From Myxococcota bacterium (GTDB taxonomy: Bacteria > Myxococcota_A > SURF-8): a stretch of 64,000 nt of DNA. How positions within the stretch are numbered: position 1 is the first letter of the stretch; each line of letters opens with the position of its first letter. This document shows, in pieces, positions 3,242 to 61,639 of the stretch. The DNA lies in assembly GCA_963674735.2 (NCBI GenBank), contig CAXXQS010000002.1, positions 32,001-96,000 on the forward strand, in the 5' to 3' direction. The position numbers were made by a program, and so were the translations under genes. The notes under the pieces were generated by a model that had not been told where the DNA came from, made no database searches, and saw only the letters and a list, made by a program, of their open reading frames with translations.

Positions 3242-4006
3242 CTATTTGGCGAAATCGATGGCGTCATCGGCCAACAGCTTGCAGGCGAATTCCAGCGTTT
3301 CAGGTGTATCGACGTCCTGCCACAGGTAGGGCCCGATATCGAAGAAACCGAAGCGATCCTGGTGGCCCAGAAGCTGCATTCCGTCGGACAGCGAGCAGTC
3401 GCCACGCTTGTCATAGGCCGCCTGCAGGGCGTCGAACAGCTCCAGGTTGCAATAAAACAGGCCGATGTCGATGGCGTTGTAGCTTTCGAGCATCTTGCCG
3501 ATGCGCACGATCCGCTCGTTTTCGGTCACGACCTTGGTGGCGTCGTCGAGGTCGAACACCTGGTCGATCTTGCGGTCGATGCACAGACGCACACCCATGC
3601 CGTTGTCCCCTGCCGCGAGAAGATCGCGTGCGATGGCAACGTCGTAGACGTGATCCGACATGGAAAGCAGGAAGGGGCCTTTGACCTTGGGACGCGCGGC
3701 CAGCGCCGAGACACCGTTGGCCAGATCGTTCCAGCGCGGATTGAAGATCGTGGTGATGGTGATGCCGTTTGCGCCGTTGAGCTTGTCCACTTCGGCTTCC
3801 ACCCGCTCGCTCAAATAGCCGGTGACGACCACGAAGCGGCGAATCCCCGCCTGGGCCAGCGTGCGAATGACGCGGGTCACCATGGGGGTGCCTTCCAATT
3901 CGATCATCGGCTTCGAGATCGGCTCGTCGCCGGTAGCCAGACCCTGTACCCGACTGCCCCAACCAGCGGCCAGAATGACGGCCGTCTCTGCTTGCGCTAC
4001 GCTCAT
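3242..4006 (-). CDS. Sugar/polyol-phosphate cytidylyltransferase (IPCT/LicC-like NTP transferase)
   Basis: AVILAAGWGSR, KPMIEL, NGVS, SMSDHVY, DATKV, IGKML..YNAIDIGLF, WQDVDT; GGAGG RBS. Confidence 0.85.
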   Translation of the reverse strand: MSVAQAETAVILAAGWGSRVQGLATGDEPISKPMIELEGTPMVTRVIRTLAQAGIRRFVVVTGYLSERVEAEVDKLNGANGITITTIFNPRWNDLANGVSALAARPKVKGPFLLSMSDHVYDVAIARDLLAAGDNGMGVRLCIDRKIDQVFDLDDATKVVTENERIVRIGKMLESYNAIDIGLFYCNLELFDALQAAYDKRGDCSLSDGMQLLGHQDRFGFFDIGPYLWQDVDTPETLEFACKLLADDAIDFAK

Positions 4007-38969: not shown

Positions 38970-40385
38970 CTAAAAACCGACGCGTCCCGATTGCAGCGGG
39001 ATTTTCGCAGGCGCGCGGCGCATGGCTGACTCGCTGTCCGCCTCGCCGTCTTCATCTCCGTCGATATCGCCGTCCGTATCGCCATTGCCGTGATCGCAGA
39101 TATAGGTGATGATCATGGTGTGGCAACCCGCATCCTGCCACCAGGAACCGTTGTCGTAAAGCACGCGGTCCACTTCGTAGCCGATTACGCTCACCTCATC
39201 CCATATTTCCAGGCTGCGCACCCAGAATTCCACCTGCTCCGAATAGGGAATGGCGTGTACGTTGATGAACGTGCCCTCGTCGATGTAGCAATTGCGCCAC
39301 CAGGCATAGTGGCCGTCCTGACCGACCGAACAAGCGGGATCGGCGTAATCGCCGCTGGTCACCAGGATGTCCGACATCATCGGCGGTTCGCTGTAGAACC
39401 ACTGGGATCGCACCACGCCGCGGTGGGTGCTGAGCGCCTCCGATTCCAGGGTGATGCGATAGCCGTCCCCCTGCAAGACCGGTTGCGGCATCTCGGGAAT
39501 TCCGTTTTCGCACAGGGGTCGCTCGCGCGTGGCCCGCCCGAACAAGGGCAGGTTTTGCTCGTCGCCGGTGGCCGTTTTCAGCCAGACGGACCCGCGTTCC
39601 TCGCCCTCCGCGGTGGGGTGATAAGCCACGCTGAATTCGAGGAATTGGCTGAAGGCCAGTTGGACGGGCGGGGCGGCGGACAGGTATTCAAGCGCAAAAG
39701 TCGCGGGTGTGTCGTCGCTCAAACCGAGCGAATCGACCATCACCGGCTGCTCGCCGAAATGATAACATGTGACGGGCAGATTGGACGTGTAGCCTTGGAT
39801 GGCGGCGGGAAAGCTCAGGTCGTCCGGGTTGCAGCGCAGCGGCTGCTCGCACGGACCCAAAGCCACAAGCGGAACCGCGATTGTCGGACAATTCCGCATG
39901 CCGCCGAGACGCAGATACAAACGACCGAAGCTGTGACAGCCGCAACCGCTGCCGGTGTCCGGATCCGGCGTGAACTGCAAGGTGGCGGCGATTTGCGCTC
40001 CCGCCTCCAATACCTGGCCGTCCAGATTTTCGAGCAATGAAAAGGTGCCGCAACGGTTATCTTCGGTTTCGACGAAAGCCTGGTCGATAAGGGCATCCGC
40101 CGTGCCGGGGTTGAGCAACTGCAATTGCAGGCTCCGGTCGCCATCCCGTGGATCGGTCGGGCTGAAATCGACTTTCTGCGGTTCCGCCTGCAGATCGATG
40201 GCGCAGACGTCGTCGGATTGGCAGACGCCGTCCACTTCATCGTAGCCGTCGTCGCACACGCACACGCCGCTTTCATCCGCGTGGCGGTTGGCCCCGCAGC
40301 CCGCATCGGGAACACCGCCGCAGGCCGACAGAAACGAAAAGGCGCTAAGCCATAGCAGCAGGGAGTTGGAAAAAGGCGAAATCAT
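38970..40385 (-). CDS. Lipoprotein with EGF-like and ASH/choice-of-anchor-D-like Ig domains
   Basis: Lipobox LSAC; CVCDDGY; VDF..NPGTAD..I; F.VAYHPTAEGEERG; DGD tail. Confidence 0.7.
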   Translation of the reverse strand: MISPFSNSLLLWLSAFSFLSACGGVPDAGCGANRHADESGVCVCDDGYDEVDGVCQSDDVCAIDLQAEPQKVDFSPTDPRDGDRSLQLQLLNPGTADALIDQAFVETEDNRCGTFSLLENLDGQVLEAGAQIAATLQFTPDPDTGSGCGCHSFGRLYLRLGGMRNCPTIAVPLVALGPCEQPLRCNPDDLSFPAAIQGYTSNLPVTCYHFGEQPVMVDSLGLSDDTPATFALEYLSAAPPVQLAFSQFLEFSVAYHPTAEGEERGSVWLKTATGDEQNLPLFGRATRERPLCENGIPEMPQPVLQGDGYRITLESEALSTHRGVVRSQWFYSEPPMMSDILVTSGDYADPACSVGQDGHYAWWRNCYIDEGTFINVHAIPYSEQVEFWVRSLEIWDEVSVIGYEVDRVLYDNGSWWQDAGCHTMIITYICDHGNGDTDGDIDGDEDGEADSESAMRRAPAKIPLQSGRVGF

Positions 40386-40453: not shown

Positions 40454-41512
40454 TCAGCGCAGATCCTCGACCACCGTGACCGGCTGGCCGTCCACCAGGC
40501 TGCGCTGCCCCATAACCACCAGGCGGTCGCCGGGCGCCAACCCCTCGGTAATGACGACCCGCGAGCCTTCCACCACGCCCAAGGCGACCTCGCGCCGCCG
40601 GGCCAAACCGTCGCGTTCGATGAAGACGCAGCGCATGCCTGTTTCCTCGATCACCACCTCTTGCGGAACGACGATCACGCCGTGGTGGGTTTTGACCACC
40701 AGACGCAGGACGGCCGCCATGCCCACCAGAATGCGGCGGTCGGCGTTTTTCACTTTCACCCGCAATTTAAAGGTGCGCGTCACCGGCTCGGAGGCGGGCA
40801 ACACCACTTCCACCTCGCCGGGAAAGGTTTCGCCCAGCGCCGGAATCAGCACCGATACCGGATCGCCTTTGCGAACGCGGTCCACCTGGCTTTCGGCCAA
40901 CTCGGCTTCGACGATGATGCGGCGGTAATCCACCACCTGGACGATCGGCGTTCCCGGTCCCAGATACTCGCCTTCTTCAACGAACTTCCGCGCGACCACT
41001 CCGCCGTTGGCGGCGCGCACCACGCTTTTGTTGAGATTGGCGCGGGCGATTTTAAGTTGGGATTCGGCTTGAATCACCTGCGCCTCGACTTCATCGATCT
41101 GCTGCTGGCTGATCAATTCTTCGCTGCGCAGGGTTTGCAGGCGAGCGAAGGTTTTTTGGGCGAGATTGAAAGCGGCTTGCGCCTGTTCAGACTGGGCTTT
41201 CAACATCTCGTAGTCGATGCGCGCCAGCACCTGACCGGCCTTCACCTCGTCGCCGAGATCGACGGCCAGCCGCTCCAGTTTGCCCGCCAGCTCGGCGCTG
41301 TAACGGATATCCATATCCGCCAACGTCCCTCCGCTGAGCGTGATCGTTTCGTCGAAATCGATGGCGGCGAGGGTTTGCACCTTCACGTTGATGGACTTCT
41401 TTTCCGCATCCGCGGCCGGTGCGGGCGGACTTTCCGAGTGGGCCGGATTGTCGCAGCCGCCCCCAACGTGTAAAAACAAGATAAACAGACTGATGAGTAC
41501 TATCCTGCGCAT
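40454..41512 (-). CDS. RND efflux periplasmic adaptor (membrane fusion protein)
   Basis: Lipoyl-like GDEVKAGQVLARID, alpha-hairpin, TRTF, GLAPGDRLVVMGQ..L.DG. Confidence 0.92.
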   Translation of the reverse strand: MRRIVLISLFILFLHVGGGCDNPAHSESPPAPAADAEKKSINVKVQTLAAIDFDETITLSGGTLADMDIRYSAELAGKLERLAVDLGDEVKAGQVLARIDYEMLKAQSEQAQAAFNLAQKTFARLQTLRSEELISQQQIDEVEAQVIQAESQLKIARANLNKSVVRAANGGVVARKFVEEGEYLGPGTPIVQVVDYRRIIVEAELAESQVDRVRKGDPVSVLIPALGETFPGEVEVVLPASEPVTRTFKLRVKVKNADRRILVGMAAVLRLVVKTHHGVIVVPQEVVIEETGMRCVFIERDGLARRREVALGVVEGSRVVITEGLAPGDRLVVMGQRSLVDGQPVTVVEDLR

Positions 41513-42520
41513 GGTGTAACTCCCGCCGTCGCGTTGCGGCTCTTGAAACCGGCTGTCTTTTCGATGGGGCAGACAACCGGTCTGTCGAACGATCGCCGTC
41601 CTTGTCCGGACCCTTTTTTGAAGCGTGAAGCATCCCCCGCACTCGACCGGATGTCAAGTAAGAAATCGGTTGGCAGGCAGAAGACGAAAGACCGCACCAT
41701 GCATCTATTTAACCATATTATGATTACATTGTAGTCACGGCGACTCGGTCTCGGTTGGTCCTTCGAATTTCCTCCATCCGGCCGGAATCGGTGCCTGTTT
41801 TCCGGCCAGCACGCTCGCTCTGACATCCGTATCCTGTTGATATTACGAGGTTATCCACCTGTTTTGATGGCCGTTTGCCGCCCTATTTCGACTCCAGCCA
41901 GCCGAAATCGAAAAAGTGTTGTCATATCAATGAGATAAGGGTGCAACTCTTAAATATCTTCTATATAATATATTAAATATAATTAAATTGGACACTCTGA
42001 AGACGCGTATCTCCCTTCGTTAGAACGAAAAATCGCGCTCAGGCGGTCAGCGGACGGAAGGTCTAACGTGTTGGTATTGAAAAACTATTTTTATTTTTAC
42101 GTTTATCGAACCCGCAGCGGGACGCAATGCGCCGCAGGCCGTCTGACACACTTTCCCTCTCGCCGGTGTGACGTATTACGGCAATCCTTGTTATCCGATA
42201 GGAATTGTACTTTACCCCCCGGCGCGCGGCCGAAAAACCCAATGATTTCGCGAAAACGAAAAAAGGGCTCCTGAAAACGGCGCAACGGACGCATCGAGGT
42301 CATTTCAGGTATTCCGGCAAAAATCGACCTGCTCAGCCGTTTTCGTCGTTTTGGCGTTTTTCGTCCGTCGCGGCAACAGGACGAAACGGCGCAGCCAGCG
42401 CCCCAGTCGGTTCGGTGCGTTCGCGCCGGGCATTTGGCTGCACGTGTTTGTGAACATTGCTCTTCCCCCGCAAACTTGCTAGAGTGATGCAATCGGTACC
42501 GAAACGGAGAGCACGCCCCC

Positions 42521-43546
42521 ATGGCCGAGACGCCTTATATCGCCTGCCCGATTTGCAAGGGCCACACCCGATGTCGCGGGGAGCGCTACGTGAATCGACA
42601 GCCCCACGCGGCTTGTTTCACGCCCGACGATCACGTGGATATCCCCTTCCAGCTTCGCCACCTGCGGCGGCTGGCGGCGCTGGCCGGAGTGGAAACAGCT
42701 TTCGGCGACGCTTACTGGAGCCTGCTTACGGAACCGCTCGACTGGGCCCAGGGCCGTTCGTCGCGCCCCATCGAATACTCCATGAGTTTCACTCCCGACC
42801 GCGTGTCCGCCTTCCGTTTCTCGCTCGCGTATTTCGACCATCAGCCGCTTCTATTGCGCCAGGATGCCCGGCACCTGCTGGAACTGATCGCCAACGCCGC
42901 GCCCGAGCTGGCCGCCGTGGCCGAGCGCACGCTCGACGGCATCCATTCGCGGGTCGTTAAGCAGCTTCTTTACGGCGTCGATTGGCGGGCCGACGGGGGC
43001 GGCCGCCACAAATTCTACCTGCGCTTGTCCGACCGTTACCCGCAGCAGAAAGAATCCATGCTGCGTCAATTGCATCCTCTATTAGCCGATATCCCATTCA
43101 CGCGCGAACCCTTTTCGCGTACGCGTCTGGTAGGCTTCGATCTTCATGGGGACGCTCGTCCGCCCGATATCAAGCTGTATTGCCAGTACGAGACGGTGAA
43201 TATCGACGCGGCGCTGGACTTGACGAAACGACATCCGTTCATCGCCTACCTGAAACCGATGCGCCCGCTTTTGCGCGAGCTGCTGACCATCTTTCGTCTG
43301 CGCCCGGATACGCCGCCCGACCCGACCGATCCGGACGAGGTCGATTTGCACATGCTGTTCAACCGGCTTGAAACGCGCGACATCCTGCGTTTTGTGAAAC
43401 AAGCGCAACTGGCGTTTCCCCTGCGGTCGTTTATCGACCTCACCCACGACAGCGTGATCGTGCCGACCTCCGTCACCTTTCCGCGCGCGCCGCTTGCGAA
43501 AATGAATCTGTACTACCTCGCCGTGGAGCCGCGCCGTGCCGGTTGA
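42521..43546 (+). CDS. Putative cyanobactin-type (PatF/LynF/TruF/PagF-like) ABBA prenyltransferase with N-terminal Cx2Cx5CxG motif
   Basis: Collinear motifs IEYS, FRF, GVDWR, KFYLRL.D.YP, LVGFDL, IKLY, MNLYY resemble recalled PagF motifs LEAS, SRF, GIDLR, KMHIRIKDYP, LIGFDF, IEIY, IRLYY. Confidence 0.6.
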   Translation: MAETPYIACPICKGHTRCRGERYVNRQPHAACFTPDDHVDIPFQLRHLRRLAALAGVETAFGDAYWSLLTEPLDWAQGRSSRPIEYSMSFTPDRVSAFRFSLAYFDHQPLLLRQDARHLLELIANAAPELAAVAERTLDGIHSRVVKQLLYGVDWRADGGGRHKFYLRLSDRYPQQKESMLRQLHPLLADIPFTREPFSRTRLVGFDLHGDARPPDIKLYCQYETVNIDAALDLTKRHPFIAYLKPMRPLLRELLTIFRLRPDTPPDPTDPDEVDLHMLFNRLETRDILRFVKQAQLAFPLRSFIDLTHDSVIVPTSVTFPRAPLAKMNLYYLAVEPRRAG

Positions 43547-44984
43547 CGATCTGAAAAACGGCGTCGCCCGCCGCATCGTTCTGGTCAATCCGCCGGTGGT
43601 CGCCGTCGATCGCGTGCAGCTCGATTACTATGCCGACGCCCAGCCCTACGGCCTCTTTCAACTGGCCGACTGGCTGGAAAGCCTAGGGCACGAAACCGCC
43701 CTGGTCGATCTGATGGCCTACGGCAAACACAGCCGGGGCTGGGACGATCTGCTTTCCACCGGTGAATTGACGCCTATCGCTCCTCTTGAAAGCGGCGTCG
43801 CCGGATTGAAGCTCGACGCTTGGCGCTACGGCTACGGCCTCAAACGCCTGGCCGCCTTTTTCGATGCCTATCCCGGCGAACCGGACGAAGTGTGGGTCAG
43901 CTGCTCGATGCTATTTAACGCATATTTAGCTCATGAGGCGTCATCCTATATCAAACGTCGTTACCCGAAAACGCGCCTTCGCATGGGCGGCGGCTATGCG
44001 TCGCTTTCCCCGGAACACGCGCAACAGAACGGAGCCGACGAAGTGTCGACCGGGCGTCTGCTCGACGCCGATCGCCGCCAACCCGGTACGCAGCATCTGC
44101 AACGCGACCAGCATTTCACCTTGTTTCGCTTGACTTGCGGCTGCCCGAACCACTGCGCCTTCTGCATCAACGGACGTCAGCCGCTGCACCGCTTTTCCAT
44201 CGACGATGTGTTGAACTATATCGAACGCGCGCATCGCGAAACCGGGATTCGACACTTCAACAACTGGGATCCCAACGTGCTGCGCTTCAAGCCGCACCTC
44301 AAGCGTTTTTTGCAACGCATGGCCGAACGCGATCTGGATGTGTCGCTGCGCTTCGATATGGGCTTCGAACCCGATCTGATCGACGACGAGTTGATTACCC
44401 TCTTAAAACAGGGGGGCGTCGAAGCCTTCACCATCCCGCTCGAATCCACCGATCCGCTGTTCGCCGAGTTTTTCGAGAAACCCTACACCATCGTGTCGTC
44501 GATTCGGGCGCTCGAAAAATTGAAGACGGCGGGGGTCGATCTTTCGGCTTCGCACGGCAGTTCCATTATCGGCTACCCGGAAGAAAAGCTGCGCGACCTC
44601 TTCACCCTGTATCACGTGGCGCGCCATTACCGCCTGATCTCCACGCCCTTTCCCATCGTCGTGTTGCCCCACTCCCCGGTATTCGAACGCTACCGCCGCA
44701 TCATGGAACCGCGCCCTTTCCGACGCTACAACGGACACCTCTTCCCGTTGATCGACGATAAACAGCGCCTGGGGCTCTACCGCCGCCTGATTTTATTGCT
44801 TACCGCCTCCAGCCTGGACGTTTCCGACCGGCTGATCGAGCGCTTTCCCGATGCGGTGCAGGCCGATTACGCCGCCGGAAAAACACGCGCCGAAGGCTTG
44901 ATCGAGCAGGCCTTGTCGCGTCCCCAAGCGGACAGCCTGGACTTGCTGGATGCCATTTACCGGGATCTGGATGGGGGGAGATAA
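43536..44984 (+). CDS. B12-binding-domain radical SAM protein
   Basis: N-terminal LVNPP..PYGL..LA..L..GH and MGGGYASL; GCPNHCAFC (CxxxCxxC); PLES, IIGYP; overlaps upstream gene. Confidence 0.82.
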   Translation: MPVDDLKNGVARRIVLVNPPVVAVDRVQLDYYADAQPYGLFQLADWLESLGHETALVDLMAYGKHSRGWDDLLSTGELTPIAPLESGVAGLKLDAWRYGYGLKRLAAFFDAYPGEPDEVWVSCSMLFNAYLAHEASSYIKRRYPKTRLRMGGGYASLSPEHAQQNGADEVSTGRLLDADRRQPGTQHLQRDQHFTLFRLTCGCPNHCAFCINGRQPLHRFSIDDVLNYIERAHRETGIRHFNNWDPNVLRFKPHLKRFLQRMAERDLDVSLRFDMGFEPDLIDDELITLLKQGGVEAFTIPLESTDPLFAEFFEKPYTIVSSIRALEKLKTAGVDLSASHGSSIIGYPEEKLRDLFTLYHVARHYRLISTPFPIVVLPHSPVFERYRRIMEPRPFRRYNGHLFPLIDDKQRLGLYRRLILLLTASSLDVSDRLIERFPDAVQADYAAGKTRAEGLIEQALSRPQADSLDLLDAIYRDLDGGR

Positions 44985-45072
44985 GCGGAGAGATGGCTCA
45001 GTTACTCCGGTGTTGGCGCGCGGCTCTCCAGGGCTAGCCCTTGACCCCTCTTGCCCTTTGCTCTTTTTGTTC

Positions 45073-45134
45073 CGCCATTCCCGCGAAGGCGGGAATCCAG
45101 GGCATGGATCCCCGGGTCAAGCCCGAAGATGACG
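45073..45134. repeat. CGTC-type REP-like element
   Basis: CGCCATTCCCGCGAAGGCGGGAATCCAG..TGGATCCCCGGGTCAAGCCCGAAGATGACG. Confidence 0.7.
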
Positions 45135-45195
45135 GAGGTGGCCGCAGTGGAACGCAGGGAGCGGCCCTTCGAGTCGAAAACCGCTTTTCGGCGCA

Positions 45196-45669
45196 CTATC
45201 CTTGCCTGCTTGCCAGACGTTTCTCTAATTTGACGCGCCACTCGTCGGGGATATCGGCTTTGCGGCCCCGCTCGTAATCGTAGCTGACCACCAGTGCGTC
45301 GCCGACAGCCGCGACTTTCCCTTGTTTTTCACTCACCACGATGTTTTCCATCAGAAAACGGTCCCGTTCCAGGCTGATTACGCGGGTTCCCACCCAGGCG
45401 GTATCGGGATAGGTCAGCGGAAATTTGAAGCGGCAGGACGTCCCGGCCAGGATCGGCCCGATTTTCCCGAGGCTTCCATCGCGCGTGATGGCAAGAGACT
45501 CGAAAAATGCGATGCGGGCGCTTTCGGTGTAGCGAAAATAGAGAACATTGTTGACGTGCCGGAAGGCATCCATGTCGCCCCACGCAATCGGAACCGGTAA
45601 AACGGTATCGTAATCCTGCAAGACTTCTTTCACGGAATCCGGCATCGTCGCTTGAAGCATGTCGTTCAC
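45196..45669 (-). CDS. Acyl-CoA thioesterase (4HBT/YbgC hot-dog fold)
   Basis: WGDMDAFRHVNNVLYFRYTESAR; FKFPLTYPD. Confidence 0.92.
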   Translation of the reverse strand: MNDMLQATMPDSVKEVLQDYDTVLPVPIAWGDMDAFRHVNNVLYFRYTESARIAFFESLAITRDGSLGKIGPILAGTSCRFKFPLTYPDTAWVGTRVISLERDRFLMENIVVSEKQGKVAAVGDALVVSYDYERGRKADIPDEWRVKLEKRLASRQG

Positions 45670-47459: not shown

Positions 47460-48020
47460 GTGGCGCAATCAACAGCATCGAACAAAAAAGTCTTTACGAC
47501 GGGAGCCATCGCGCGCCTGTTCGGAATCAACATCAACACCGTCATCAAGTGGTTCGATGAAGGTAAGCTCGAAGGATTCCGGCTTCCCATCAGCAACGAC
47601 CGACGCATCCCGCTCGGCAGCCTGCGCAAATTCATGACAACGCATCAAATTCCGATGGACCTGCTCGACGATTCCACTCAGGCCCGCCGCATGTATACCC
47701 GTATCCCGATTTCCAGCCAAATCACGTTCACCGCCCAAAACGGCCACACTTACGGGCCGTACGAAGGTCATTTAAGCGATCTATCGCAAGGCGGCGCCCG
47801 TATTCTGGCGGGAGGGATCGAAGCTTTTTCCATTCCGTCGCAACAGTTCGGAATGATGATCACCGTCAAAGACGGTCCCCTGGCGGATAGTTCTTTCTCC
47901 GGCCAGGTCGTACATCTGCAACCGATGGAAGATGAACTTGCCATCGGTATGAAATTCGCCGATATCGATGCTCCCAACCAAGGCAGACTGCTGTCTTACC
48001 TCAACTCTCAGTTAAGCTGA
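47460..48020 (+). CDS. Excisionase/MerR-like HTH fused to a PilZ domain
   Basis: FTTGAIARLFG..TVIKWFDEGKL..RRIP; PilZ RxxxR (RRMYTR) and DxSxxG (DLSQGG). Confidence 0.8.
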   Translation: MAQSTASNKKVFTTGAIARLFGININTVIKWFDEGKLEGFRLPISNDRRIPLGSLRKFMTTHQIPMDLLDDSTQARRMYTRIPISSQITFTAQNGHTYGPYEGHLSDLSQGGARILAGGIEAFSIPSQQFGMMITVKDGPLADSSFSGQVVHLQPMEDELAIGMKFADIDAPNQGRLLSYLNSQLS

Positions 48021-48264: not shown

Positions 48265-50523
48265 ATGACACGACGAGTGATGGGATTGGCGATATTGGCG
48301 GCGGTGGCTTTCGCCCTACCGGCCTATGCCAACGTCATGAACGAAACCGCACAGGTCTGTTTTACCGATACGGACCAGGATGGGTTCAGCGAGACCCTGA
48401 CGATGGATCCTCAGCAGCATCAGATCCTCAATGCCTATCCGGACGATCCGCTCAACGATTTCAACGGATTCGACCAGGGCTGCCAGCTTCCCAAAAGCTA
48501 TGCGGAGTATCCGACTCTGAGCCTCACGGGCGAAGTTCTCTATTCGACCGATCCGCAAGTCGATCCGTGCATGAACGGCGAGCTGGAGCTTGAAAAAGAG
48601 GAGTACGAGGACGGCTACAAGCTGTTCCTGCTCGACTCGGCCACCTGCCAATACCGCATGGCGATGGAAATGGATGTTATCATTTGTATGGCGCAGTTGC
48701 AGAACTGGTGCCCTGTTTCCAAATTCGCCTTCGAGTTCACCAACGCGGAAATCGACAACTTCATCGGTTCGCCCCTGCTCGACTACTATGCCGCACAGCC
48801 GGAAACGCCCTGGAGCTGGGCTTCCGTCACCATGACGTCGACTGAAACCGCCGACTTCGGCGCTTCGATTCAAATCGGTGAGGAATTCTGCGCCGATGCC
48901 GAAATCGCCCAGTTCCCCGGCGAAGAGTGCGACGGCTGCGACGATTGCGGGATCGAGTCCAATGGCCGCATGATGACGCAGTTGGCCAAACGCCATTACC
49001 TGCGCGGTCAGGCGGCGGTATGCTCCGATCCTTCCGGTGAAGGCGTCCTGTGCGACCGTCCCATGATGCTGGCCTCGACCGACATGGCGAGCAGCAAGCT
49101 GAACCTGGCGACACTGCTTCCCGATTACGAAGCCCTCGGCCTGCAGGCGGTCCCGACCTCCCCCAGCGATCTGATCGACATCACCAACGCCAACGACGTT
49201 ATCGCGATGGATCACTTCAAGGACGGCGTGGTCAGCGGCGCAATCCTGTTGGTCGAATCGGAAGACAAAGTTTACGAACATACCAAAATCATCTGCGACC
49301 GCTTCGCCGGTCAGGTGCTCGAACTGGTCACCGATGTACGCGTCAACGACTGGACCTTCCCGATCGCCGTTTTGGCCGATCTCAACGAAGACAAACGGTC
49401 CTTCGCCGTGAGCTTCGCGGTTGCCGACAACACCGTCTTCGCCCGTTGGCTGGTTCAGGACTACCCCGAGCTTCAAGGCCGCACCGTTTATAACATCCAG
49501 CTCTGGTCCTGCTCGCTGGCGGAAACCGTTCGCCTGCTCAAGGCCGAACTGGCCCGCCTGGACGCCGTCTTCGGTTCCGTCGCCAACGGCGACGCGCCCT
49601 TCTCCAGCCGGACCCCCGAAGCCTACTTCATGGCCGCCGAAAAACGCGGGACCGACACCCTGTATATGCTCGCCGGACGTGACCGCAACGACCTGAAAGT
49701 CGAAGTGAGCTACTATCCGGAAACCGGCGACGGCAATCCGCATTTCACCACCTTGGACGTCCCGGCCGAAACCGGTCGCATCCAAGACAGCCTGCCGCCG
49801 TTCTTCGACGCCATGGCCGACCTGGTGAAGCCCGATGGAACCGTGGTCGACACCGTCTACATCGCCGACGGCGCCTTCGCCGCCTTCGACGACACCGAGT
49901 TCGGCGGTTCCTCGCTTCTGTCCTCGACCGTCAACCAGGGCTGCCAACGCGACAGCGACACGCGCCCCGGCGACTTCGTCATCACCGGCTGCGCCCAATC
50001 GCAGGGCATGGTCGACAAGTACGGCGTCATCGTCCGCGTAATGGAAGGTCCGGCCGCCCCGTACGACTTCAGCGACTACCAGGCGATCAGCTTCAGCTAT
50101 CGTTCCGACACCGAACTGGTGTTGTGCATGGAATCCAAAAGGCTCTACGGCCAGTCGCAGTCCTGCATCAACCTGCCGCCAACCGATGGCTTGAAGAAGA
50201 CCTGGATTCCCCTGGATCAGTTCCGCATCTACGGCACGGCCGACGATCCGGCGGTTCTCGACGACATCGTGGCCTTCAGTTGGAACATCTGGAACATGGA
50301 CACGATCATGGGCGGACCTCTCGCCTCCGACTTTGCGGTTGAAGGCGTCACCATGCGGGCGTCCTCGACTCCGGCGGTGGATTACAATTTCGTGAGTGAA
50401 CTGGCCAAGCCCGAAACCTTCGTGGGCTGCCAGAATAGCGATACCCCTTCTGCTTTGGCCGGTTTGCTGCTGCTGGTTCTGTTGGCGGCGCTGCGCTTTT
50501 GCAGAAAGGAGTCGGTGCGCTAA
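48265..50523 (+). CDS. Secreted surface protein with possible carbohydrate-binding domain and MYXO-CTERM-like anchor
   Basis: Signal peptide (AYA); C-terminal GCQ..TM..RFCRK; galactose-binding-like DFSDYQAISFSY. Confidence 0.7.
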   Translation: MTRRVMGLAILAAVAFALPAYANVMNETAQVCFTDTDQDGFSETLTMDPQQHQILNAYPDDPLNDFNGFDQGCQLPKSYAEYPTLSLTGEVLYSTDPQVDPCMNGELELEKEEYEDGYKLFLLDSATCQYRMAMEMDVIICMAQLQNWCPVSKFAFEFTNAEIDNFIGSPLLDYYAAQPETPWSWASVTMTSTETADFGASIQIGEEFCADAEIAQFPGEECDGCDDCGIESNGRMMTQLAKRHYLRGQAAVCSDPSGEGVLCDRPMMLASTDMASSKLNLATLLPDYEALGLQAVPTSPSDLIDITNANDVIAMDHFKDGVVSGAILLVESEDKVYEHTKIICDRFAGQVLELVTDVRVNDWTFPIAVLADLNEDKRSFAVSFAVADNTVFARWLVQDYPELQGRTVYNIQLWSCSLAETVRLLKAELARLDAVFGSVANGDAPFSSRTPEAYFMAAEKRGTDTLYMLAGRDRNDLKVEVSYYPETGDGNPHFTTLDVPAETGRIQDSLPPFFDAMADLVKPDGTVVDTVYIADGAFAAFDDTEFGGSSLLSSTVNQGCQRDSDTRPGDFVITGCAQSQGMVDKYGVIVRVMEGPAAPYDFSDYQAISFSYRSDTELVLCMESKRLYGQSQSCINLPPTDGLKKTWIPLDQFRIYGTADDPAVLDDIVAFSWNIWNMDTIMGGPLASDFAVEGVTMRASSTPAVDYNFVSELAKPETFVGCQNSDTPSALAGLLLLVLLAALRFCRKESVR

Positions 50524-55102: not shown

Positions 55103-56572
55103 CTAGAGACCGACGAATCGCTTGGTTCGACGTTTGCCCCATAGCGGCTTGACCAACTGCCCCACGACAATCTTCGCATCCATCAACAGGCTTCGCTTTT
55201 TGGCGTAAACCGTTTCGAGAATACGCTTTTCCAGTTCATCGTCACCGAGATTTCCCACTTCGATCCACCCCGGAGACAAGCGATAGCGTTCCAACATCCA
55301 TTCCTCGCAGGCCTGGAGGCTTTCTTCGGCCGTTAACGGCGAGGGACCGACCAGCCGCATATCGCCTTTCAGGACATTGATCAAAGCCGGCCAGCGAGCC
55401 AAAAGGGAACCTTCGCGCCGCAGATGAAGCATCTGAAAACGCGGCAGATACGTGAGATCGTCGGGAGTTTCGACCACGCCTTTCCCAAGGACCTCTTTCC
55501 CGATCACCGACGACTCGTTGTTCTTACGCTGTATCAGAGAGGCCGCAACACCCAGCGGCGCCATTCCGACCAACAATCCCATTGCCATTCCGCGCTGGAT
55601 CAGCGACTCCATCCAATCGCTCAAGACCGAGCGGCTCATGCTGCCGAGCAAGAACGAATCGGTAATCAGGACACGCGTACCGAAATCGAAGGTGAACAAC
55701 ATATTCTCGGCGACAAAAGCACGCGACACGCGGGTCATCTCGCCGATATAGGAGTGGGAAGCCACGACGCTGTTGGTGATTTTGGCACGACGCGCTACAA
55801 CCGTATCGTCGCCGATCACCGCGTTGGGTCCCACCTCCGCTTCCGCGATCACCTGTGTATGGTGACCGATCAACACCGGTGGCACCAACCGCGCCTTGGG
55901 GTGAACATCCGCCAAGCGCCCCACAAACACGCCCGGCCGCTCTTCCACGTAGGTGCTGTGAGCCGCCAGATCGGGTTGGCGCAGCAGCCGCAAATTGAGG
56001 TCCAGCAGGCCCGTCAACCCCTCGCCCGCCATCGCCGGATCATCGACCTCGATGATGCCGGTCGATGAAGACGATTCGGCGTCCATCGCCAAGGTTTCGA
56101 ACAGCGGCCCCTGCGCGCCATCCAGCAGGCGATCGGAAGCCGGACTTAGAATCACGGCCACGATCCGGCCGTTTTGTCGCTCGCGAATCAGACTGATGGG
56201 ACGCTGCGCCCGGGCATGCCGATCGGCCAGCTTGGCGTAATTCAGCTTCGCCATCACCAGACCGGCAACGACAACCAGGGTTTCATCGAATAAAAATCGA
56301 TGTTTGAGCAGGCTCTCGCATTCATCGCCGGAACGCGCACCGATCAACACGGCCAGATTGACGCCGAAGCGCACGCCGTCATGGAAATAGGTATTGACGT
56401 CGTTGAGTCCATCGCTCACGATCAACGCCACATCGCGCAGATTGTGCTGATAGGCCTGCTCGATCTGGTGCTGAGCGATCGGCTTGTTTTGAACCGGCAA
56501 CAGCGCCGGAAAAACCGATTTGGCCAGAGACCCGAAAGGGTCGCTACGGGTATGTAGAAGAACCAATTTCAT
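55103..56572 (-). CDS. NDP-sugar pyrophosphorylase-like + LbH + bacterial sugar transferase fusion
   Basis: ALLPVQNKPI, YFHDGVRFGV, hexapeptide repeats, WPALINVLKGDMRLVGP. Confidence 0.8.
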   Translation of the reverse strand: MKLVLLHTRSDPFGSLAKSVFPALLPVQNKPIAQHQIEQAYQHNLRDVALIVSDGLNDVNTYFHDGVRFGVNLAVLIGARSGDECESLLKHRFLFDETLVVVAGLVMAKLNYAKLADRHARAQRPISLIRERQNGRIVAVILSPASDRLLDGAQGPLFETLAMDAESSSSTGIIEVDDPAMAGEGLTGLLDLNLRLLRQPDLAAHSTYVEERPGVFVGRLADVHPKARLVPPVLIGHHTQVIAEAEVGPNAVIGDDTVVARRAKITNSVVASHSYIGEMTRVSRAFVAENMLFTFDFGTRVLITDSFLLGSMSRSVLSDWMESLIQRGMAMGLLVGMAPLGVAASLIQRKNNESSVIGKEVLGKGVVETPDDLTYLPRFQMLHLRREGSLLARWPALINVLKGDMRLVGPSPLTAEESLQACEEWMLERYRLSPGWIEVGNLGDDELEKRILETVYAKKRSLLMDAKIVVGQLVKPLWGKRRTKRFVGL

Positions 56573-56607
56573 GATTTACTCACCAGCCGGGACGTTCCTG
56601 GGGGAGA

Positions 56608-58665
56608 TCAAAATGCGCCTCGGCCGCCCATTACAGCCGGAATCGTTCTTAAAATCAATCGGATGTCGCCCCAGAAACTCTGGTTGCGCATGTACTCCCG
56701 ATCCAGCAGCACCTGCCGATCGAAACCGAGCAGGCTACGGCCGCTGACCTGCCACAAACAGGTCAACCCCGGCATGATCTCCAGACGATCCCGATCCGAT
56801 ACGGCGTACTCGCGAACCTCATCCTGAGTCGGGGGTCGAGGCCCGACCAGCGACATATCGCCGAGAAAAACATTGAACAGCTGGGGAAGTTCATCGATGG
56901 ACAAACGCCGGATCAGGCGGCCGACCTTCGTAATCCGGGGGTCGCGCGCCATCTTGAAGATCACCCCTGCATCCGATTCATTCAGATCCAGCATTTCTTT
57001 CTTCAGCGCATCCGCGTTCACCACCATGGACCTGAATTTATACATCTTGAAGACGCGGCCATGACGCCCCACCCGATTCTGCCCGAAGAAAACCGGGCCT
57101 TCCGCATCCTCGATCTTGATGGCCAGAGCCGTTGCCAGAAACAGCGGCGATAAAAGCGCCAGTCCGCTCGTGGCCCCGATGATATCCAGCAGACGCTTCG
57201 CTTTCAGGCTGCCTTCGGTTGCGGCAAACCAGAGGAAGCGCGTTACCTGATAACGCAATTCGGCACGGTACCGCTGGCTGGGCACATCGATATCGCTGAA
57301 CCGCTTGATCAATTGCGTGCGCGCCTGCGACACATACCAGCGCCAGACGCCCCACAAGAACTGCGGATTGCCTACCAGGTAGCGTCTGAACATGCGGCGC
57401 GGTTCCTGGCCGAAACGCCACAGCCACTCGAATCCCAGTTCGCGCACCCAGATCGGCGCACGCGGGATGCGTCCCGAGTAGAAATCGAACAGCCCGCCAA
57501 CCCCCATCGCCACGCCGACGTTCAGACGAGGCAGGTTTCGCTCGATCCATTTTTCCTGCGTCGGTACGCCACGCGCGACCAACAGCAGATCCGGCCGCAT
57601 GTGATTGATTGCGGAGATGATCTGCTCTTCCTCTTCGGTGCCCTCTTCGAAGAAACCGTGCCAGGCTCCGAGAATCTTGAGATCCGGGAAGAGCGCCAAC
57701 ACGCGTTTTTTCGCCACTTCCGAGACACCGGGCGCCGCACCCAGCAAAAACAGACTCTTGCCCGCTTGCTGAGCCCGATCGCAGAGGATGGGAAACAGGT
57801 CGGTGCCGTTGACGTTCTCGCGAACCTCGGCTCCGATCATCGAACCGGCCAGTCGCACGCCCACGCCGTCCGGAAACACCGCATCGGCCCGCTTGAGAAT
57901 CGACTGGTAATCGGCGTCTTTCGCCGCCACGTTGAAACAATGCGGATTGACAAACGTGATATGCTTGCGCCTCTTTTCCGATAGCGCGAGAATGTGCTCG
58001 ACGGCCTGCCGCAGGGTCAGATTCGACACTTCCACATCACGCAGGACGAAGGAATTGACATTCACCGGCGTCGAGCCGCCCATGATCAAAGTCGGAATGG
58101 TGCGGGCCAGAATCGCCAGATCCTTTTTCACCGATCGTTCGGCCAGATAGGCGCGCTCCGGCGTGCGGCGACCATCGAAGGCGATGTTCATGCGTTTGCG
58201 GATGCGATACGGATCCGAAAGTCCCGGACGCACCGCCAGGCGAATGCGGTCGTGCTCTTCGAGCTTCGCAGTTTCTTCCGGCGAGAGGGCCTCCGGTCCG
58301 ACAAACGCCATCTCGCCTTTGATGATGTTCAACAGAACCGGAACATCGTAGGCATGGGTTCGCTTCAGCAGTTCCATCAGCCAGCCGAGACGCTTGATGC
58401 GCGCCGGTTTTTTAAAACGCAGCCGGGTAAAGAGACGTGCGTCACGGCCCACCAGCTGCTCGCGCTCGAATATCTGCGGCTCGCCGTTGGCGATCAAGGC
58501 CGCAGCGACAACGGCGGAAATCGCCATCCCGCTCGGGGCTCCCGTCGCGGCAAGCGCCAGATCCAGAAGCCGACGCCGGGCGTCGATACGTCGTTTGAAC
58601 GCGTTGAGCGTCCCGGACCCGGAGGTTTCCGGTGCGCGTTTCGCTTCGTTGGACTTACGTTTCAT
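56608..58665 (-). CDS. Sugar transferase / WecB-TagA-CpsF / sugar transferase triple fusion
   Basis: N-terminal KGEMAFVGP..RPGL; central FVNPHC, PDGVG, NGTDL, PTQEKW, GVGGLFDF, RAP; C-terminal YKFRSM, DELPQLFNV, PGLTCLWQVSGRS. Confidence 0.9.
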   Translation of the reverse strand: MKRKSNEAKRAPETSGSGTLNAFKRRIDARRRLLDLALAATGAPSGMAISAVVAAALIANGEPQIFEREQLVGRDARLFTRLRFKKPARIKRLGWLMELLKRTHAYDVPVLLNIIKGEMAFVGPEALSPEETAKLEEHDRIRLAVRPGLSDPYRIRKRMNIAFDGRRTPERAYLAERSVKKDLAILARTIPTLIMGGSTPVNVNSFVLRDVEVSNLTLRQAVEHILALSEKRRKHITFVNPHCFNVAAKDADYQSILKRADAVFPDGVGVRLAGSMIGAEVRENVNGTDLFPILCDRAQQAGKSLFLLGAAPGVSEVAKKRVLALFPDLKILGAWHGFFEEGTEEEEQIISAINHMRPDLLLVARGVPTQEKWIERNLPRLNVGVAMGVGGLFDFYSGRIPRAPIWVRELGFEWLWRFGQEPRRMFRRYLVGNPQFLWGVWRWYVSQARTQLIKRFSDIDVPSQRYRAELRYQVTRFLWFAATEGSLKAKRLLDIIGATSGLALLSPLFLATALAIKIEDAEGPVFFGQNRVGRHGRVFKMYKFRSMVVNADALKKEMLDLNESDAGVIFKMARDPRITKVGRLIRRLSIDELPQLFNVFLGDMSLVGPRPPTQDEVREYAVSDRDRLEIMPGLTCLWQVSGRSLLGFDRQVLLDREYMRNQSFWGDIRLILRTIPAVMGGRGAF

Positions 58666-58667
58666 CG

Positions 58668-59615
58668 CTAGAACACACTCTCCGGTACGTAAACGATGTC
58701 GTTGGGCTCCAGTACGAAATCGACGCCTTTGCCTTCCAGAATATCATCCATATCGACTTCGAAAACTTCCGGTTTGGTTACGGCATTGCGCACGATCCGC
58801 ACCCGACTCGTGCGGGCGGCCGGCAAGAACCCACCGCTGACCGCAATCGCCTTGGTCAGGGTCATCGGGCGCAGCAACGGAACCACCGAGGGAGACCGCA
58901 CGGCCCCCAGAATCAGAATCTCGCGGCTTGTCGAAACGGGAATGTAAAGAATATCCCTGGGGCGAACGCGAATGTTGTAGCGCATGTCGCCGGAGACGAT
59001 CAACGACGGAAAATCAATGGGCAGCACTTCGCCGTTTCGCGACAGATACGAACGCTGTAAATCGGCTCCCGGCAATTCAAGCTCATTGACCGTAACCGTG
59101 CGCAGACCGCCCGCCATGGCAATGGCCTTCAGAATGCGGATCTCACCGGTAATCTGATGAATGCCCGGCTTCTTGACACCATCGCCCAAAATAACGAAAT
59201 CATTGCTCGAAAACTCGTTGATGATGATATCCGTCTTGGCACCCTTCAGGTAGGTATTGAGACGAACATCCAGTTCTTCGATGATTTCCGCCACGCGCCG
59301 ATTTTTCGCGATCACCTCGCCTACCAGCGGGAAAGTGAAATTGCCGTTCGGCTCGATCGTGACGGTACGGGTCAGGCTCTCTTCTCCATACACGTAAATC
59401 GTGATGGTGTCGCCCGGCCCGAGACGGTAGGAACTCGTTTCTTCCTCTTCCATCGCCATCATCTCCTCGAAGGTGATGCTCGATTTCGGAGGCGCGAACC
59501 CCAGCGCGGGATCCATGGTATCCGCCGGATTGGGAAGCCGTTTGGTCCCGCCGCAGGCCCACAGGCTTGCGATTAAAACCACCGACACGACAAGAAACAG
59601 GATTCGTTGGCTCAT
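58668..59615 (-). CDS. Polysaccharide export lipoprotein (Wza/OPX with SLBB domains)
   Basis: Lipobox LWAC; YRLGPGDTITI, FPLVGEV, GAV..P, L.PNDIVYVP. Confidence 0.92.
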   Translation of the reverse strand: MSQRILFLVVSVVLIASLWACGGTKRLPNPADTMDPALGFAPPKSSITFEEMMAMEEEETSSYRLGPGDTITIYVYGEESLTRTVTIEPNGNFTFPLVGEVIAKNRRVAEIIEELDVRLNTYLKGAKTDIIINEFSSNDFVILGDGVKKPGIHQITGEIRILKAIAMAGGLRTVTVNELELPGADLQRSYLSRNGEVLPIDFPSLIVSGDMRYNIRVRPRDILYIPVSTSREILILGAVRSPSVVPLLRPMTLTKAIAVSGGFLPAARTSRVRIVRNAVTKPEVFEVDMDDILEGKGVDFVLEPNDIVYVPESVF

Positions 59616-61639
59616 GATATTAGCTTCTTCAAAATAAGGTTTTCCACGGCGTCACGGCCCAGCGCAACCTTGCGGTAGGCACTCGTCGTGAGTCTTTCCT
59701 GATGGCGAGCCATAAACGGCTCGGCATCCGTGATAAAGGCTCCGAGGATGGGAGTTCCAAGCCCTCCCAACTGACGCAGCACTCTTTCGACATGATCTTT
59801 CTTCGTCACACCCGCCCGCACGACCAGAACGATCGCATCCAGTTGCGGGACCAGTTCCATCACCTGCACGTAATCGAAGGCCGGGGGCGCATCGATCAGA
59901 ATCAGGTCGTAGCGATCCTTCAACTGGCGGAAAATCTTGGCCAATCGTTCGCTACCCAGAAAATCGAGATCGCCCGGCCGCTTGAAGCGCGCCTGGAAGC
60001 GATCGGGAAGTCCCTCTTCGGTTTTATCGATCGGACCCTCGAAGGCTTCTTCCCCCGCCAAACGACGCTCGGTAATCTGGTCTTCGGGAAGCTCGGGGAA
60101 AAGATCGGCTCCGATATACAACACCCGCTTACCGCGAGCAGCCATGACATTGGCCAGATTTTCGGTGACGGTCGTCAACCCGTTCCCGTCGGTGGTGGAA
60201 AAGAAACCGACCACCTTTTTCCCGGCCAGCTTGTTTTCGACCAACAAACTCGAAACCGTCGGCTTGTAAAGATCCGGCTCCAACAGGGGAATATCATCCC
60301 GCGCATCGGCATCATGCAGATGCTGCCCGAGAACCGGCAAACCGAAGATGCCGAAAACTTCCTTGGCCGACATCAAAACCGAGTTGAAGAACTCCAGCAG
60401 TAAAATCAGAACGATAAAAAACGCGGTGCCGCCGACCGGAATCGCCACGGCCGCAAGTTTGGCCAGCGAGCTTTCGGGTCGCGTGGGGGGACTGGCCCGC
60501 TCGATAATGCGGAATTCACCATGCGTGTCCCGCGCCGTCGCCGCCGCTTCTTCACGCCGCGACATCAAATCTCTCAGCGCCTGTTTGGAGAAGAGGTACC
60601 GCTGCTGAATCGCCGAAAACGCCTTCTCGTTGTCGGTGAAATTCTTCAGGCGCTCCTCCAGCTCTTTCTTCTGGCCGGTCAACGAATTGATGCGCCCGTA
60701 GATGGTGGCGCGCCTGACCTCGGACCGGCCCCGCTCGTCGCTGGCGACGGTCTTCAGCATGGCCTGCAGTTCTTCATTTTTCTTCTGAATACGCGGATTT
60801 TCTTCCGTGTAACGGCTCCGCAACTGATCGAGCTCTTTCCGCAGCGATTCGATCCGCTTGAGCCCCGCGCTATCGAGCCCGGCCGCACCGCCGAAAGATT
60901 TTTGACCCAGATTGTTGATTTGCCGATTGACGGCACCCAGTTCGATCTTGGCTTCTTCGATCTGGGCCTTGATTTCCGCCACCTTTTCAAGGGACAACTC
61001 GGTTTCCACATCCATCAGGACAATGCCGTGTTCTTTGCGAAACTCCGTCACCTCATCCGAGGCCGCCGCAAATTTTTCTTCGGCATCCTTAACCAGGTAG
61101 TCCAGTTTATCCAAGGCCTTCTGGGCTTCCGCACGGCGCAACTCCAACAGGTATTTCACGAACACGTCAGCCGCCAGATTCGCCACATCCATCGCTTCCT
61201 TCGGATCGGACCCGATACCGGAAATCGCGATCAGATTGGAATTCATGGCGCGCTTGAGCGTAATACGTCCGGCCAGACTTTCGAGCTCGATGTCTTCGCC
61301 GAGTTGCTCTCGGACGGATTCGAGGTTGGAGGGCAACTTGATCGTGTCGACCAAGGTATCGATATTCATGCGTGGCAGTTCGAAATGGCTGCCTTCGCCG
61401 ATCACCACCCCTTTTGGGGGCTCGATGCGCAAGACAACCGAGGTGGCCACGTACGACTGACCGCGAAGAAACAGGCCCGTTCCGACCCCTAAAGCGGCAA
61501 GCAACATAAATAAAAGCAGAAGAATGCGCCAGCGCCGTACGACGGCCAGCACATAGCGACGCCAATCCAACCGTTTGAAAAGGTCGTCCTCTTCCGAATT
61601 CCCACCATTACGCGTATCAGGCAGATACGATTCCGCCAT
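59612..61639 (-). CDS. Polysaccharide co-polymerase (Wzc/GumC-like) with degenerate kinase domain
   Basis: Two TM helices, long coiled coil, NLA..A..GKRVL, YDLILIDAPP; Walker A reads GNGLTT. Confidence 0.85.
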   Translation of the reverse strand: MAESYLPDTRNGGNSEEDDLFKRLDWRRYVLAVVRRWRILLLLFMLLAALGVGTGLFLRGQSYVATSVVLRIEPPKGVVIGEGSHFELPRMNIDTLVDTIKLPSNLESVREQLGEDIELESLAGRITLKRAMNSNLIAISGIGSDPKEAMDVANLAADVFVKYLLELRRAEAQKALDKLDYLVKDAEEKFAAASDEVTEFRKEHGIVLMDVETELSLEKVAEIKAQIEEAKIELGAVNRQINNLGQKSFGGAAGLDSAGLKRIESLRKELDQLRSRYTEENPRIQKKNEELQAMLKTVASDERGRSEVRRATIYGRINSLTGQKKELEERLKNFTDNEKAFSAIQQRYLFSKQALRDLMSRREEAAATARDTHGEFRIIERASPPTRPESSLAKLAAVAIPVGGTAFFIVLILLLEFFNSVLMSAKEVFGIFGLPVLGQHLHDADARDDIPLLEPDLYKPTVSSLLVENKLAGKKVVGFFSTTDGNGLTTVTENLANVMAARGKRVLYIGADLFPELPEDQITERRLAGEEAFEGPIDKTEEGLPDRFQARFKRPGDLDFLGSERLAKIFRQLKDRYDLILIDAPPAFDYVQVMELVPQLDAIVLVVRAGVTKKDHVERVLRQLGGLGTPILGAFITDAEPFMARHQERLTTSAYRKVALGRDAVENLILKKLIS

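Follow-up and report, generated by a model that had tools for sequence, protein, structure and literature searches.

Organization of the two-gene locus

The question raised by the locus described here is what two overlapping genes of an uncultured myxobacterium, one encoding a prenyltransferase (PT)-barrel homologue and the other a radical S-adenosylmethionine (SAM) enzyme, accomplish together. Both genes lie on the forward strand of a 64,000-nucleotide (nt) stretch of contig CAXXQS010000002.1 (hereafter the window, whose numbering is used for all features within it). Gene 1 (P0001, 42521-43546, +) has an ATG start and encodes a 341-amino-acid (aa) homologue of the PT-barrel (ABBA) prenyltransferases, and gene 2 (P0002, 43536-44984, +) has a GTG start and encodes a 482-aa radical SAM protein with an N-terminal region resembling Rossmann and B12-binding domains. 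The initial annotation had named them a cyanobactin-type prenyltransferase homologue and a B12-radical SAM enzyme outside any cyanobactin cluster. The answer favoured here, with moderate confidence, is that the pair forms a self-contained bicistronic operon encoding a two-component enzyme for prenyl transfer and radical modification, encountered so far only in Myxococcota.

According to the open reading frame (ORF) listing and the translations, the two genes overlap by 11 nt (43536-43546, +), the end of gene 1 with its TGA stop (43544-43546) extending across the GTG start of gene 2 at 43536, and a GGAG is located 6 nt ahead of that GTG. The overlap suggests translational coupling of genes 1 and 2, and in the sister loci the ORF coordinates show genes that overlap by 4-14 nt or abut. 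The GC content at third codon positions (GC3) is 0.75 for gene 1 and 0.73 for gene 2, with surrounding genes at 0.68-0.78.

Gene 1 encodes a PT-barrel homologue outside the described families

P0001 alone gave no match in Pfam, NCBIfam or the PDB sequences, even at E<=10, and a word-indexed protein search returned only P0001 itself. With phmmer against 1.84 billion cluster representatives, 31 proteins were obtained at E<=1e-3, 11 at <=1e-10 and 5 at <=1e-30, P0001 being included in each count. Alignment A1 contains 26 of these 31 proteins, the fragments P0007, P0008, P0010 and P0032 and the fused protein P0025 having been left out. Thirteen columns are invariant over the 26 members (E85, S87, R99, G152, R162, K164, Y166, D207, K218, Y220, R259, Y331 and Y332). 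They fall within the seven motifs listed in the initial annotation, all of which are present and collinear in gene 1: IEYS (84-87), FRF (98-100), GVDWR (152-156), KFYLRLSDRYP (164-174), LVGFDL (203-208), IKLY (217-220) and MNLYY (328-332).

When the A1 profile was compared with the PDB, the best match was 9vtd of the LynF/TruF/PatF family (E 1.6e-6), followed by 8ye0 (KgpF, E 4.9e-4), 7w8u (IptA, a 6-DMATS, E 5.3e-4), 7vmw (LimF, E 4.9e-3) and further enzymes of the cyanobactin and DMATS types, and PT-barrel enzymes made up 18 of the 21 matches listed. The profile alignment to 9vtd pairs the seven motifs with strands of that protein (LESS / ARFG / GVDAR / KLKIALTINDYP / LHL-GFDL / IELY / KMNLYYL), which bears out the likeness to PatF, LynF and PagF that had been recognized from the motifs. 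In the alignment to IptA, LEfS is paired with VEYS, RlKlYl with GVKVYL and vKLYf with VKVYC, and these columns are invariant in the A1 family. The site pattern of DMATS-type enzymes (a glutamate on strand 1, an arginine on strand 2 and Lys-x-Tyr pairs) is therefore present in gene 1 according to the profile alignment.

The glutamate, arginine and Lys-x-Tyr residues that line the diphosphate site are assigned their roles in the FgaPT2 literature. DMATS-like diphosphate binding is predicted for gene 1 because five basic residues are conserved, a prediction that draws in part on the FgaPT2 literature. Gene 1 is taken as a probable active prenyltransferase since residues that stay invariant at 19-35% identity correspond, in the profile alignment, to the catalytic Glu and to the diphosphate-binding Arg and Lys-x-Tyr strands of active enzymes. 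The roles of Glu102 in FtmPT1 and of Lys174 in FgaPT2 are supported in PMC7973389. The (N/D)DxxD motif of membrane and trans-prenyltransferases is not conserved; the sole such string in gene 1, DDHVD (36-40), lies ahead of the barrel and is unconserved in A1.

None of the curated family models claims this protein. TIGR04445 (LynF/TruF/PatF, cut-off 140 bits) gave no match at E<=10, either for P0001 or genome-wide, and the DMATS models PF11991 and TIGR03429 did not match P0001. Among the 26 members of A1, six weakly match DMATS models (best 0.003 and 5.4e-5) and one matches TIGR04445 (0.0048); the clade as such is detected by neither Pfam nor NCBIfam. Since the curated models do not claim P0001, gene 1 is a member of the PT-barrel superfamily that belongs to neither described family (LynF/TruF/PatF or DMATS) and represents a new, rare clade. 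A genome search with PF11991 returned a single unrelated stretch, a weak match to the Trp_DMAT model with 20.5 bits, below the cut-off, within a 4086-aa open frame (L047, G000:C2:519214-519531, -).

Predicted fold of gene 1 and its N-terminal cysteine module

The PT-barrel is defined, in PMC3227686, as ten antiparallel beta-strands built from five alpha-alpha-beta-beta repeats with the helices around them. The AlphaFold2 model of gene 1 made from the single sequence was unusable (predicted local distance difference test, pLDDT, 32.7). The model made with A1 reached a pLDDT of 88.9 and a predicted template modelling score (pTM) of 0.88, with ten strands in helix-helix-strand-strand repeats, and the fold it predicts is a PT-barrel according to this definition. 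With Foldseek, 128 PDB matches were found at E<=1e-3, and among the matches listed all were PT-barrel prenyltransferases, led by KgpF (2.2e-11) and followed by PagF, LimF, 5-DMATS and PatF; the Foldseek comparison proposed in the initial annotation thus returned the expected fold.

In the structure comparison, the bacterial DMATS-type enzymes PriB and 5-DMATS gave a score of 21.6 (extent 292-298) and IptA and CymD 21.1-21.4 (290-295), compared with 20.3 (268) for the cyanobactin-type PatF and 19.8-20.1 (261-265) for KgpF, PagF and LimF, values that are close to tied by the rule of the comparison tool. The homology to PT-barrel prenyltransferases stands, but the label "cyanobactin-type" is not established.

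Ahead of the barrel, gene 1 carries four cysteines, C9-x2-C12-x5-C18-x13-C32 (42545-42616, +). The motif CX2CX5CX10-13C occurs in 20 of the 34 proteins of the family that were examined and at 13 of 16 loci, and P0025 and P0046, both fused proteins, retain it in their linker. The proteins that lack it are mostly shorter sequences, together with the forms of loci L039, L041 and L042. Of the 50 solved prenyltransferase entries listed, 47 give alignments that do not start before model residue 31, whereas those of 6os6, 4yzj and 4yla/4yl7 extend back to residues 12-31, and residues 37-339 are the part spanned by at least one fifth of the structure-comparison rows. The model has low confidence across the cysteine module, and the spacing is unlike that of a classical two-knuckle zinc ribbon. 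The module is a putative, clade-specific metal site, which would bind either Zn or an Fe-S cluster.

Gene 2 encodes a radical SAM enzyme

Pfam Radical_SAM matched gene 2 with E 2.6e-13 and 50.9 bits (cut-off 29.5). The CxxxCxxC motif that had been pointed out earlier is indeed the radical SAM cluster motif C203-PNH-C207-AF-C210 (C203-x3-C207-x2-C210; 44142-44165, +). In alignment A2, made of 17 gene 2 homologues, C203, C207 and C210 are nearly invariant and the other cysteines are unconserved.

The B12-binding model PF02310 gave 22.2 bits on gene 2, below its cut-off of 32.1, and 29.6-32.5 bits on the orthologues, in which no stretch passed by itself. Seventeen NCBIfam models (BchE, PhpK, MiaB/RimO, ladderane-lipid B12 radical SAM and others) matched gene 2 weakly, all far under their cut-offs, and the 24 relatives found at E<=1e-10 are all named "radical SAM protein" or "hypothetical". 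P0002 alone had no match in the PDB. The A2 profile matched AprD4 (4.8e-7), TM_1862, TsrM (2.2e-4), RimO (2.8e-4), 9ccb (1.7e-3) and MiaB (7.5e-3). The nearest ESM Atlas clusters (0.97-0.98) are named "B12-binding domain-containing radical SAM", which is used as a lead only.

As stated in a 2026 review (PMC12931638), 9CCB is QCMT, AprD4 and homologues of ArsL contain Rossmann-like domains without binding cobalamin, and TsrM and QCMT do bind it. The cofactor of gene 2 cannot be read from similarity because AprD4 works without cobalamin and TsrM and QCMT work with it. Judged by its sequence, gene 2 encodes a radical SAM enzyme whose N-terminal region resembles a B12 domain; the radical SAM assignment of the initial annotation holds, but its "B12" label is not established.

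A role in defence has no support, as the PADLOC models gave nothing meaningful: gene 2 had one 13-bit match (E 0.008), and the barrel proteins and the fusion had none.

Conservation of the gene pair

A second pair is present in the same genome (L002/L045, G000:C2:731514-735530), in which the barrel gene overlaps the radical SAM gene in the same order. Its barrel protein P0029 (L002 1504-2637, -) has 377 aa and is 22% identical to gene 1, and its radical SAM protein (L002 90-1553, -) has 487 aa and is 33% identical to gene 2. This second, strongly diverged pair is flanked by genes for an APH-family kinase, an iron-dependent repressor and an M23 peptidase, and the window shares none of them.

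Searches from both sides recovered the pair. With the A1 profile, matches were obtained in 15 of the 401 phylum genomes, which represent 12 of 254 genera and include the genome of the window. Among the 16 distinct PT-centred loci, a strong gene 2 homologue lies directly downstream in nine, in L005 the radical SAM protein is a diverged one of 833 aa encoded on the opposite strand, and six have no gene 2 homologue within 1.5 kb, three of these six also having none within the 8-kb flanks. The A2 search among 185,579 species genomes gave 17 radical SAM-centred loci, 16 of them in metagenome-assembled genomes labelled Myxococcota, Myxococcales, Myxococcia, Anaeromyxobacter or Deltaproteobacteria and one in a genome labelled Pseudomonadota. 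By hmmsearch with A1, a barrel gene was found directly upstream on the same strand in 13 of the 17, one (L039) is a one-frame fusion of radical SAM followed by barrel, and the barrel gene is absent in three. One of these three, L040, begins at a contig end, and for another, L043, the barrel gene of the genome is located 3.4 Mb away.

The order seen in L039 recurs in two further fusions, P0025 with 810 aa and P0046 with 800 aa. Similarity among the three fused forms extends over their whole length (47% and 33% identity), and for this reason they probably derive from one fusion event. Pairwise identities of barrel and radical SAM proteins co-vary (r = 0.81 over 16 pairs, a value reached in 0 of 2000 permutations), the window pair grouping with L027-L030 and the paralogous pair with L031-L034. 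A complex prediction of gene 2 with gene 1 (from A2 and A1) scored 0.00 and, with no controls run, says nothing either way.

The pairing of barrel and radical SAM genes is conserved, and the minimal conserved unit consists of these two genes, so far confined to Myxococcota. The initial annotation had proposed checking whether homologues keep a radical SAM neighbour, and they do so in the loci, the second pair and the fusions described above. That the two are chance neighbours of unrelated function is very improbable: only the lack of a known precedent speaks for it, and it is already contradicted by the shared order and overlap in 13 of 17 loci, by the paralogous pair in the same genome and by the fused proteins.

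One of the loci contains a distant barrel homologue without the cysteine module (L021 7929-8906, +; G229:C1 about 4.72-4.74 Mb; profile E 1.9e-58). Its neighbours are a PhyH-type dioxygenase, a 485-aa radical SAM protein of a different type and a 307-aa protein with strand-like, Y/F-rich motifs and no Pfam match, perhaps another barrel.

Genomic neighbourhood and precursor search

The upstream boundary of the operon is a divergent HlyD-type membrane-fusion gene (40454-41512, -), separated from gene 1 by a spacer of 1008 nt (41513-42520). The GC content of the spacer falls to 0.49-0.54 and its ORFs have GC3 of 0.55-0.59. An Rfam scan of 41000-45400 found nothing in the spacer and one sub-threshold small RNA match inside the HlyD gene; promoter-like and terminator-like sites in the spacer were at or under shuffle expectation, and its repeats are trivial (one weak 17-nt direct repeat and an AT palindrome). 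The spacer contains no convincing gene, and the ORFs, GC3 and spacer scans agree with the earlier description of two overlapping genes behind about 1 kb of non-coding DNA. Next to the HlyD-type gene lies an ORF of 471 aa (38970-40385, -; GC3 0.75) with no Pfam match at E<=0.01, which may encode its outer-membrane or pump partner.

The downstream boundary is a convergent 4HBT_2 thioesterase gene (45196-45669, -), and a PMT_2 glycosyltransferase gene comes after it (both by Pfam). The 211-nt gap between gene 2 and the thioesterase gene contains a perfect 8-bp hairpin with the loop GAAG (45077-45096), which may mark the end of the operon; the terminator scan did not call it because no T-run follows.

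These downstream genes bear on the idea of an isoprenoid or lipid pathway, in which the radical SAM enzyme would methylate or alter an isoprenoid chain or a membrane lipid and the barrel would transfer or accept an isoprenoid. The thioesterase and glycosyltransferase genes would fit such a pathway, as would the weak resemblance of gene 2 and of neighbours at other loci to TIGR04072 ("lipid biosynthesis B12-binding/radical SAM") and to the HpnJ/HpnR and Tes models. However, every one of those models scores far below its curated cut-off, the genes downstream are convergent and have no conserved counterpart at any other locus, and the known PT-barrel enzymes, as described in PMC3227686, act on aromatic acceptors. 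A lipid pathway is accordingly regarded as quite improbable.

Outside the immediate flanks, the window contains an ORF of 752 aa (48265-50523, +; GC3 0.78) with no Pfam match at E<=0.01 and a polysaccharide gene cluster (55103-63997, -) with Bac_transf and WecG sugar transferases, Poly_export/SLBB, two GT4 glycosyltransferases and a chain-length-regulator-like AAA_31 protein. PilZ-domain genes occur within a few kb of the pair in the window (47460-48020, +), near the paralogous pair (L045 76-1074) and at L024 (10425-11777) and L025 (5229-6548), two syntenic loci from the same genus. PilZ genes are numerous in this phylum, and a link, which would be to c-di-GMP signalling, was set aside as probably due to chance.

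The window neighbours have no counterpart in eight 17-kb loci, and clustering of 172 neighbouring ORFs from 23 loci gave no family common beyond lineage-specific synteny. With the PMT_2 protein as an anchor, a synteny comparison within the same taxonomic family found no orthologue in five genomes. By Pfam, the contexts of the pair vary widely, with chaperones, regulators and MopE-repeat proteins among the neighbours. In L028 (138-10189), the pair lies between RecC-like (Exonuc_V_gamma) and UvrD/RecB-like helicase genes, as if inserted in a recBCD-type operon, a setting that argues for movement of the unit as a cassette.

None of the 52 window ORFs scanned with Pfam matched Peptidase_S8 or a PatA/PatG-like family, in agreement with the earlier statement that PatA and PatG are missing, and no PatE-like precursor was found in the window. 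A genome-wide search with PatG_C gave no match, its control being likewise silent. All-against-all comparison of 1530 small ORFs from 13 loci gave alternate-frame matches, syntenic same-genus pairs and a few weak matches; a conserved short precursor ORF, the other linkage suggested by the initial annotation, was not found by this screen, which is not exhaustive since it missed the zinc-ribbon gene of L027, L029 and L030.

That gene encodes a 137-aa double Zn_ribbon_TFIIB protein (Pfam 1.5e-15) with a conserved aromatic tail ending ...GYQ(V/I)LGFR(R/K), and it lies 12-19 nt upstream of the barrel gene, forming a three-gene operon there (L030 2520-2933, +; L027 41-397; L029 about 3560-3975). It is absent upstream in the window and in L028, and the genome of the window has only a 36%-identical homologue elsewhere. 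The protein is a possible partner or substrate of the pair in those loci. Small radical SAM genes (about 325-395 aa) follow downstream in L029, L030, L034, L035, L037 and L040, and large multi-radical SAM proteins are present in L036, L038, L041 and L042. The window has none of these additions, neither the zinc-ribbon gene nor the small or multi-radical SAM genes.

In other clades (L026/L038, L036, L041, L042, L039 and L040), further radical SAM genes surround the pair. Their products include double radical SAM proteins of roughly 1000 aa, in which the N-terminal half is SPASM-like and the C-terminal half has a B12 domain, as well as radical SAM proteins of about 465-540 aa that carry a B12 domain; none of them comes near an NCBIfam cut-off.

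These observations bear on a special case of the favoured reading, in which the pair modifies a protein or a peptide that is made by the ribosome and modified after translation (RiPP): the barrel would prenylate Trp, Tyr, His, Arg, Ser or Thr of a peptide or protein encoded elsewhere, and the radical SAM enzyme would C-methylate or cross-link it. The best profile and Foldseek matches of gene 1 are peptide prenyltransferases (9vtd, KgpF, PagF and LimF), and the extra radical SAM genes of other clades resemble, far below threshold, the NCBIfam models "RiPP maturation radical SAM C-methyltransferase", ApyD and SPASM maturases. The zinc-ribbon protein with its aromatic tail would also fit. A peptide or protein substrate is regarded as a tentative possibility.

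Proposed function and its weighing

The two genes are considered a self-sufficient two-component enzyme that obtains its substrate from the rest of the cell, because they overlap, have co-diverged, are occasionally fused and occur in unrelated genomic settings. In the proposed mechanism, gene 1 would be a soluble prenyltransferase whose barrel binds an allylic prenyl diphosphate via the invariant R99, R162, K164, Y166, K218, Y220, R259, Y331 and Y332. Alkylation would take place on an electron-rich acceptor close to the invariant E85, for example a group of the indole, phenol, imidazole or guanidine type. The acceptor might be carried by a free metabolite or by a peptide encoded elsewhere. Gene 2 would carry out radical C-H functionalization of the same substrate or of the prenyl group just added to it, with C-methylation as the likeliest reaction should cobalamin be bound; without cobalamin, 5'-deoxyadenosyl-radical chemistry such as cyclization or dehydration would be expected. 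The four-cysteine module of gene 1 would be a clade-specific metal site that may help the barrel protein work with its radical SAM partner. The sequences and models show the fold, the homology, the conserved residues, the conserved pairing, the fusions and the lack of other conserved neighbours, whereas prenyl transfer, the order of the two steps, the radical chemistry and the substrate are inferred.

A more specific form of this proposal, a new kind of two-component and at times single-chain enzyme, is favoured only loosely, namely that the PT-barrel, with its own CX2CX5CX13C metal or Fe-S module, docks on the B12-like radical SAM protein and that ionic prenyl transfer and a radical step take place in one assembly, the radical step being methylation or cyclization of the prenyl group or activation of the acceptor. 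If true, this would result in a prenylated metabolite or a post-translational modification of a class that has not been seen before and that is, to date, limited to Myxococcota.

Several observations weigh against the two-component enzyme proposed here. PT homologues without this radical SAM gene are present at L003/L019, L011/L021 and L014/L022, and radical SAM loci without a PT at L036 and L043. The two sets of loci have some members in common and stem from related genomes, which keeps the counts from being independent, and co-variation is expected for any two vertically inherited genes. No conserved isoprenoid-diphosphate supply, acceptor-biosynthesis, protease, transporter or precursor ORF was found beside the pair, and for this reason the substrate is a guess. 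Cobalamin binding by gene 2 is doubtful because PF02310 is below threshold and because AprD4, the best solved relative, is described as not binding it.

A PT-barrel fold is in itself no proof of prenyl transfer, and PatF, a barrel protein of cyanobactin clusters, is catalytically inactive. The barrel could be no transferase but a substrate-binding or scaffold subunit with a metal-binding cysteine module, the radical SAM enzyme doing all the chemistry. Obligate pairing with occasional fusion and the retention of the clade-specific module in the fusion linker would suit such a subunit. The residues that are invariant over 19-35% identity nevertheless match, in the alignment, the catalytic Glu of active enzymes and the Arg, Lys and Tyr with which these bind diphosphate, which would be unexpected in a mere scaffold, and a scaffold role is judged unlikely.

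PT-barrel enzymes are valued biocatalysts for the late-stage prenylation of peptides and aromatics, and new clades of them have repeatedly brought new acceptor or donor specificities. If the two proteins of the favoured two-component enzyme share one substrate, carbocation and radical chemistry would be combined in a two-gene unit that is small and portable and lends itself readily to expression and screening, and the pair would point to an unknown prenylated product in uncultured myxobacteria. Full-text searches of openly accessible papers, their supplements aside, brought up no description of a PT-barrel protein that is paired with a radical SAM enzyme or fused to one.

Comparison with known systems

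Compared with the bacterial DMATS/CymD type (PriB 5jxm, 5-DMATS 6zrz, IptA 7w8u and CymD 6os5), gene 1 is only 13-16% identical and is not detected by the curated models. An N-terminal four-cysteine module and an obligatory radical SAM partner or fusion are not known as features of DMATS enzymes.

The LynF/TruF/PatF family (PatF 4bg2, PagF 5tty, KgpF 8ye0, LimF 7vmw, DciF 9lwv and 9vtd) has a fold like that of gene 1. It differs in that gene 1 is not matched by TIGR04445 and that the window lacks a PatA/PatG protease and a PatE-like precursor. The family is known mainly from cyanobacteria, whereas the host of gene 1 belongs to Myxococcota. On two strands the gene 1 family keeps Lys-x-Tyr, and the corresponding positions of the aligned cyanobactin sequence read K-I-A and E-L-Y. 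Unlike LynF/TruF/PatF, the gene 1 family has the four-cysteine module and the radical SAM partner.

For gene 2, AprD4 (6fd2), TsrM (6wte), QCMT (9ccb), RimO and MiaB have the same domain order, with an N-terminal Rossmann domain, and are the closest solved relatives by profile, over the radical SAM core. The methylthiotransferases RimO and MiaB carry auxiliary-cluster cysteines, whereas the gene 2 family has no conserved cysteines of this kind.

The teleocidin enzymes TleC and TleD follow a similar logic, in which an indole prenyltransferase acts first and the prenyl chain is then C-methylated. TleD is an ordinary SAM methyltransferase and not a radical SAM enzyme, and the TleC/TleD genes lie in a cluster with nonribosomal peptide synthetase (NRPS) and cytochrome P450 genes, whereas the unit described here consists of two genes only.

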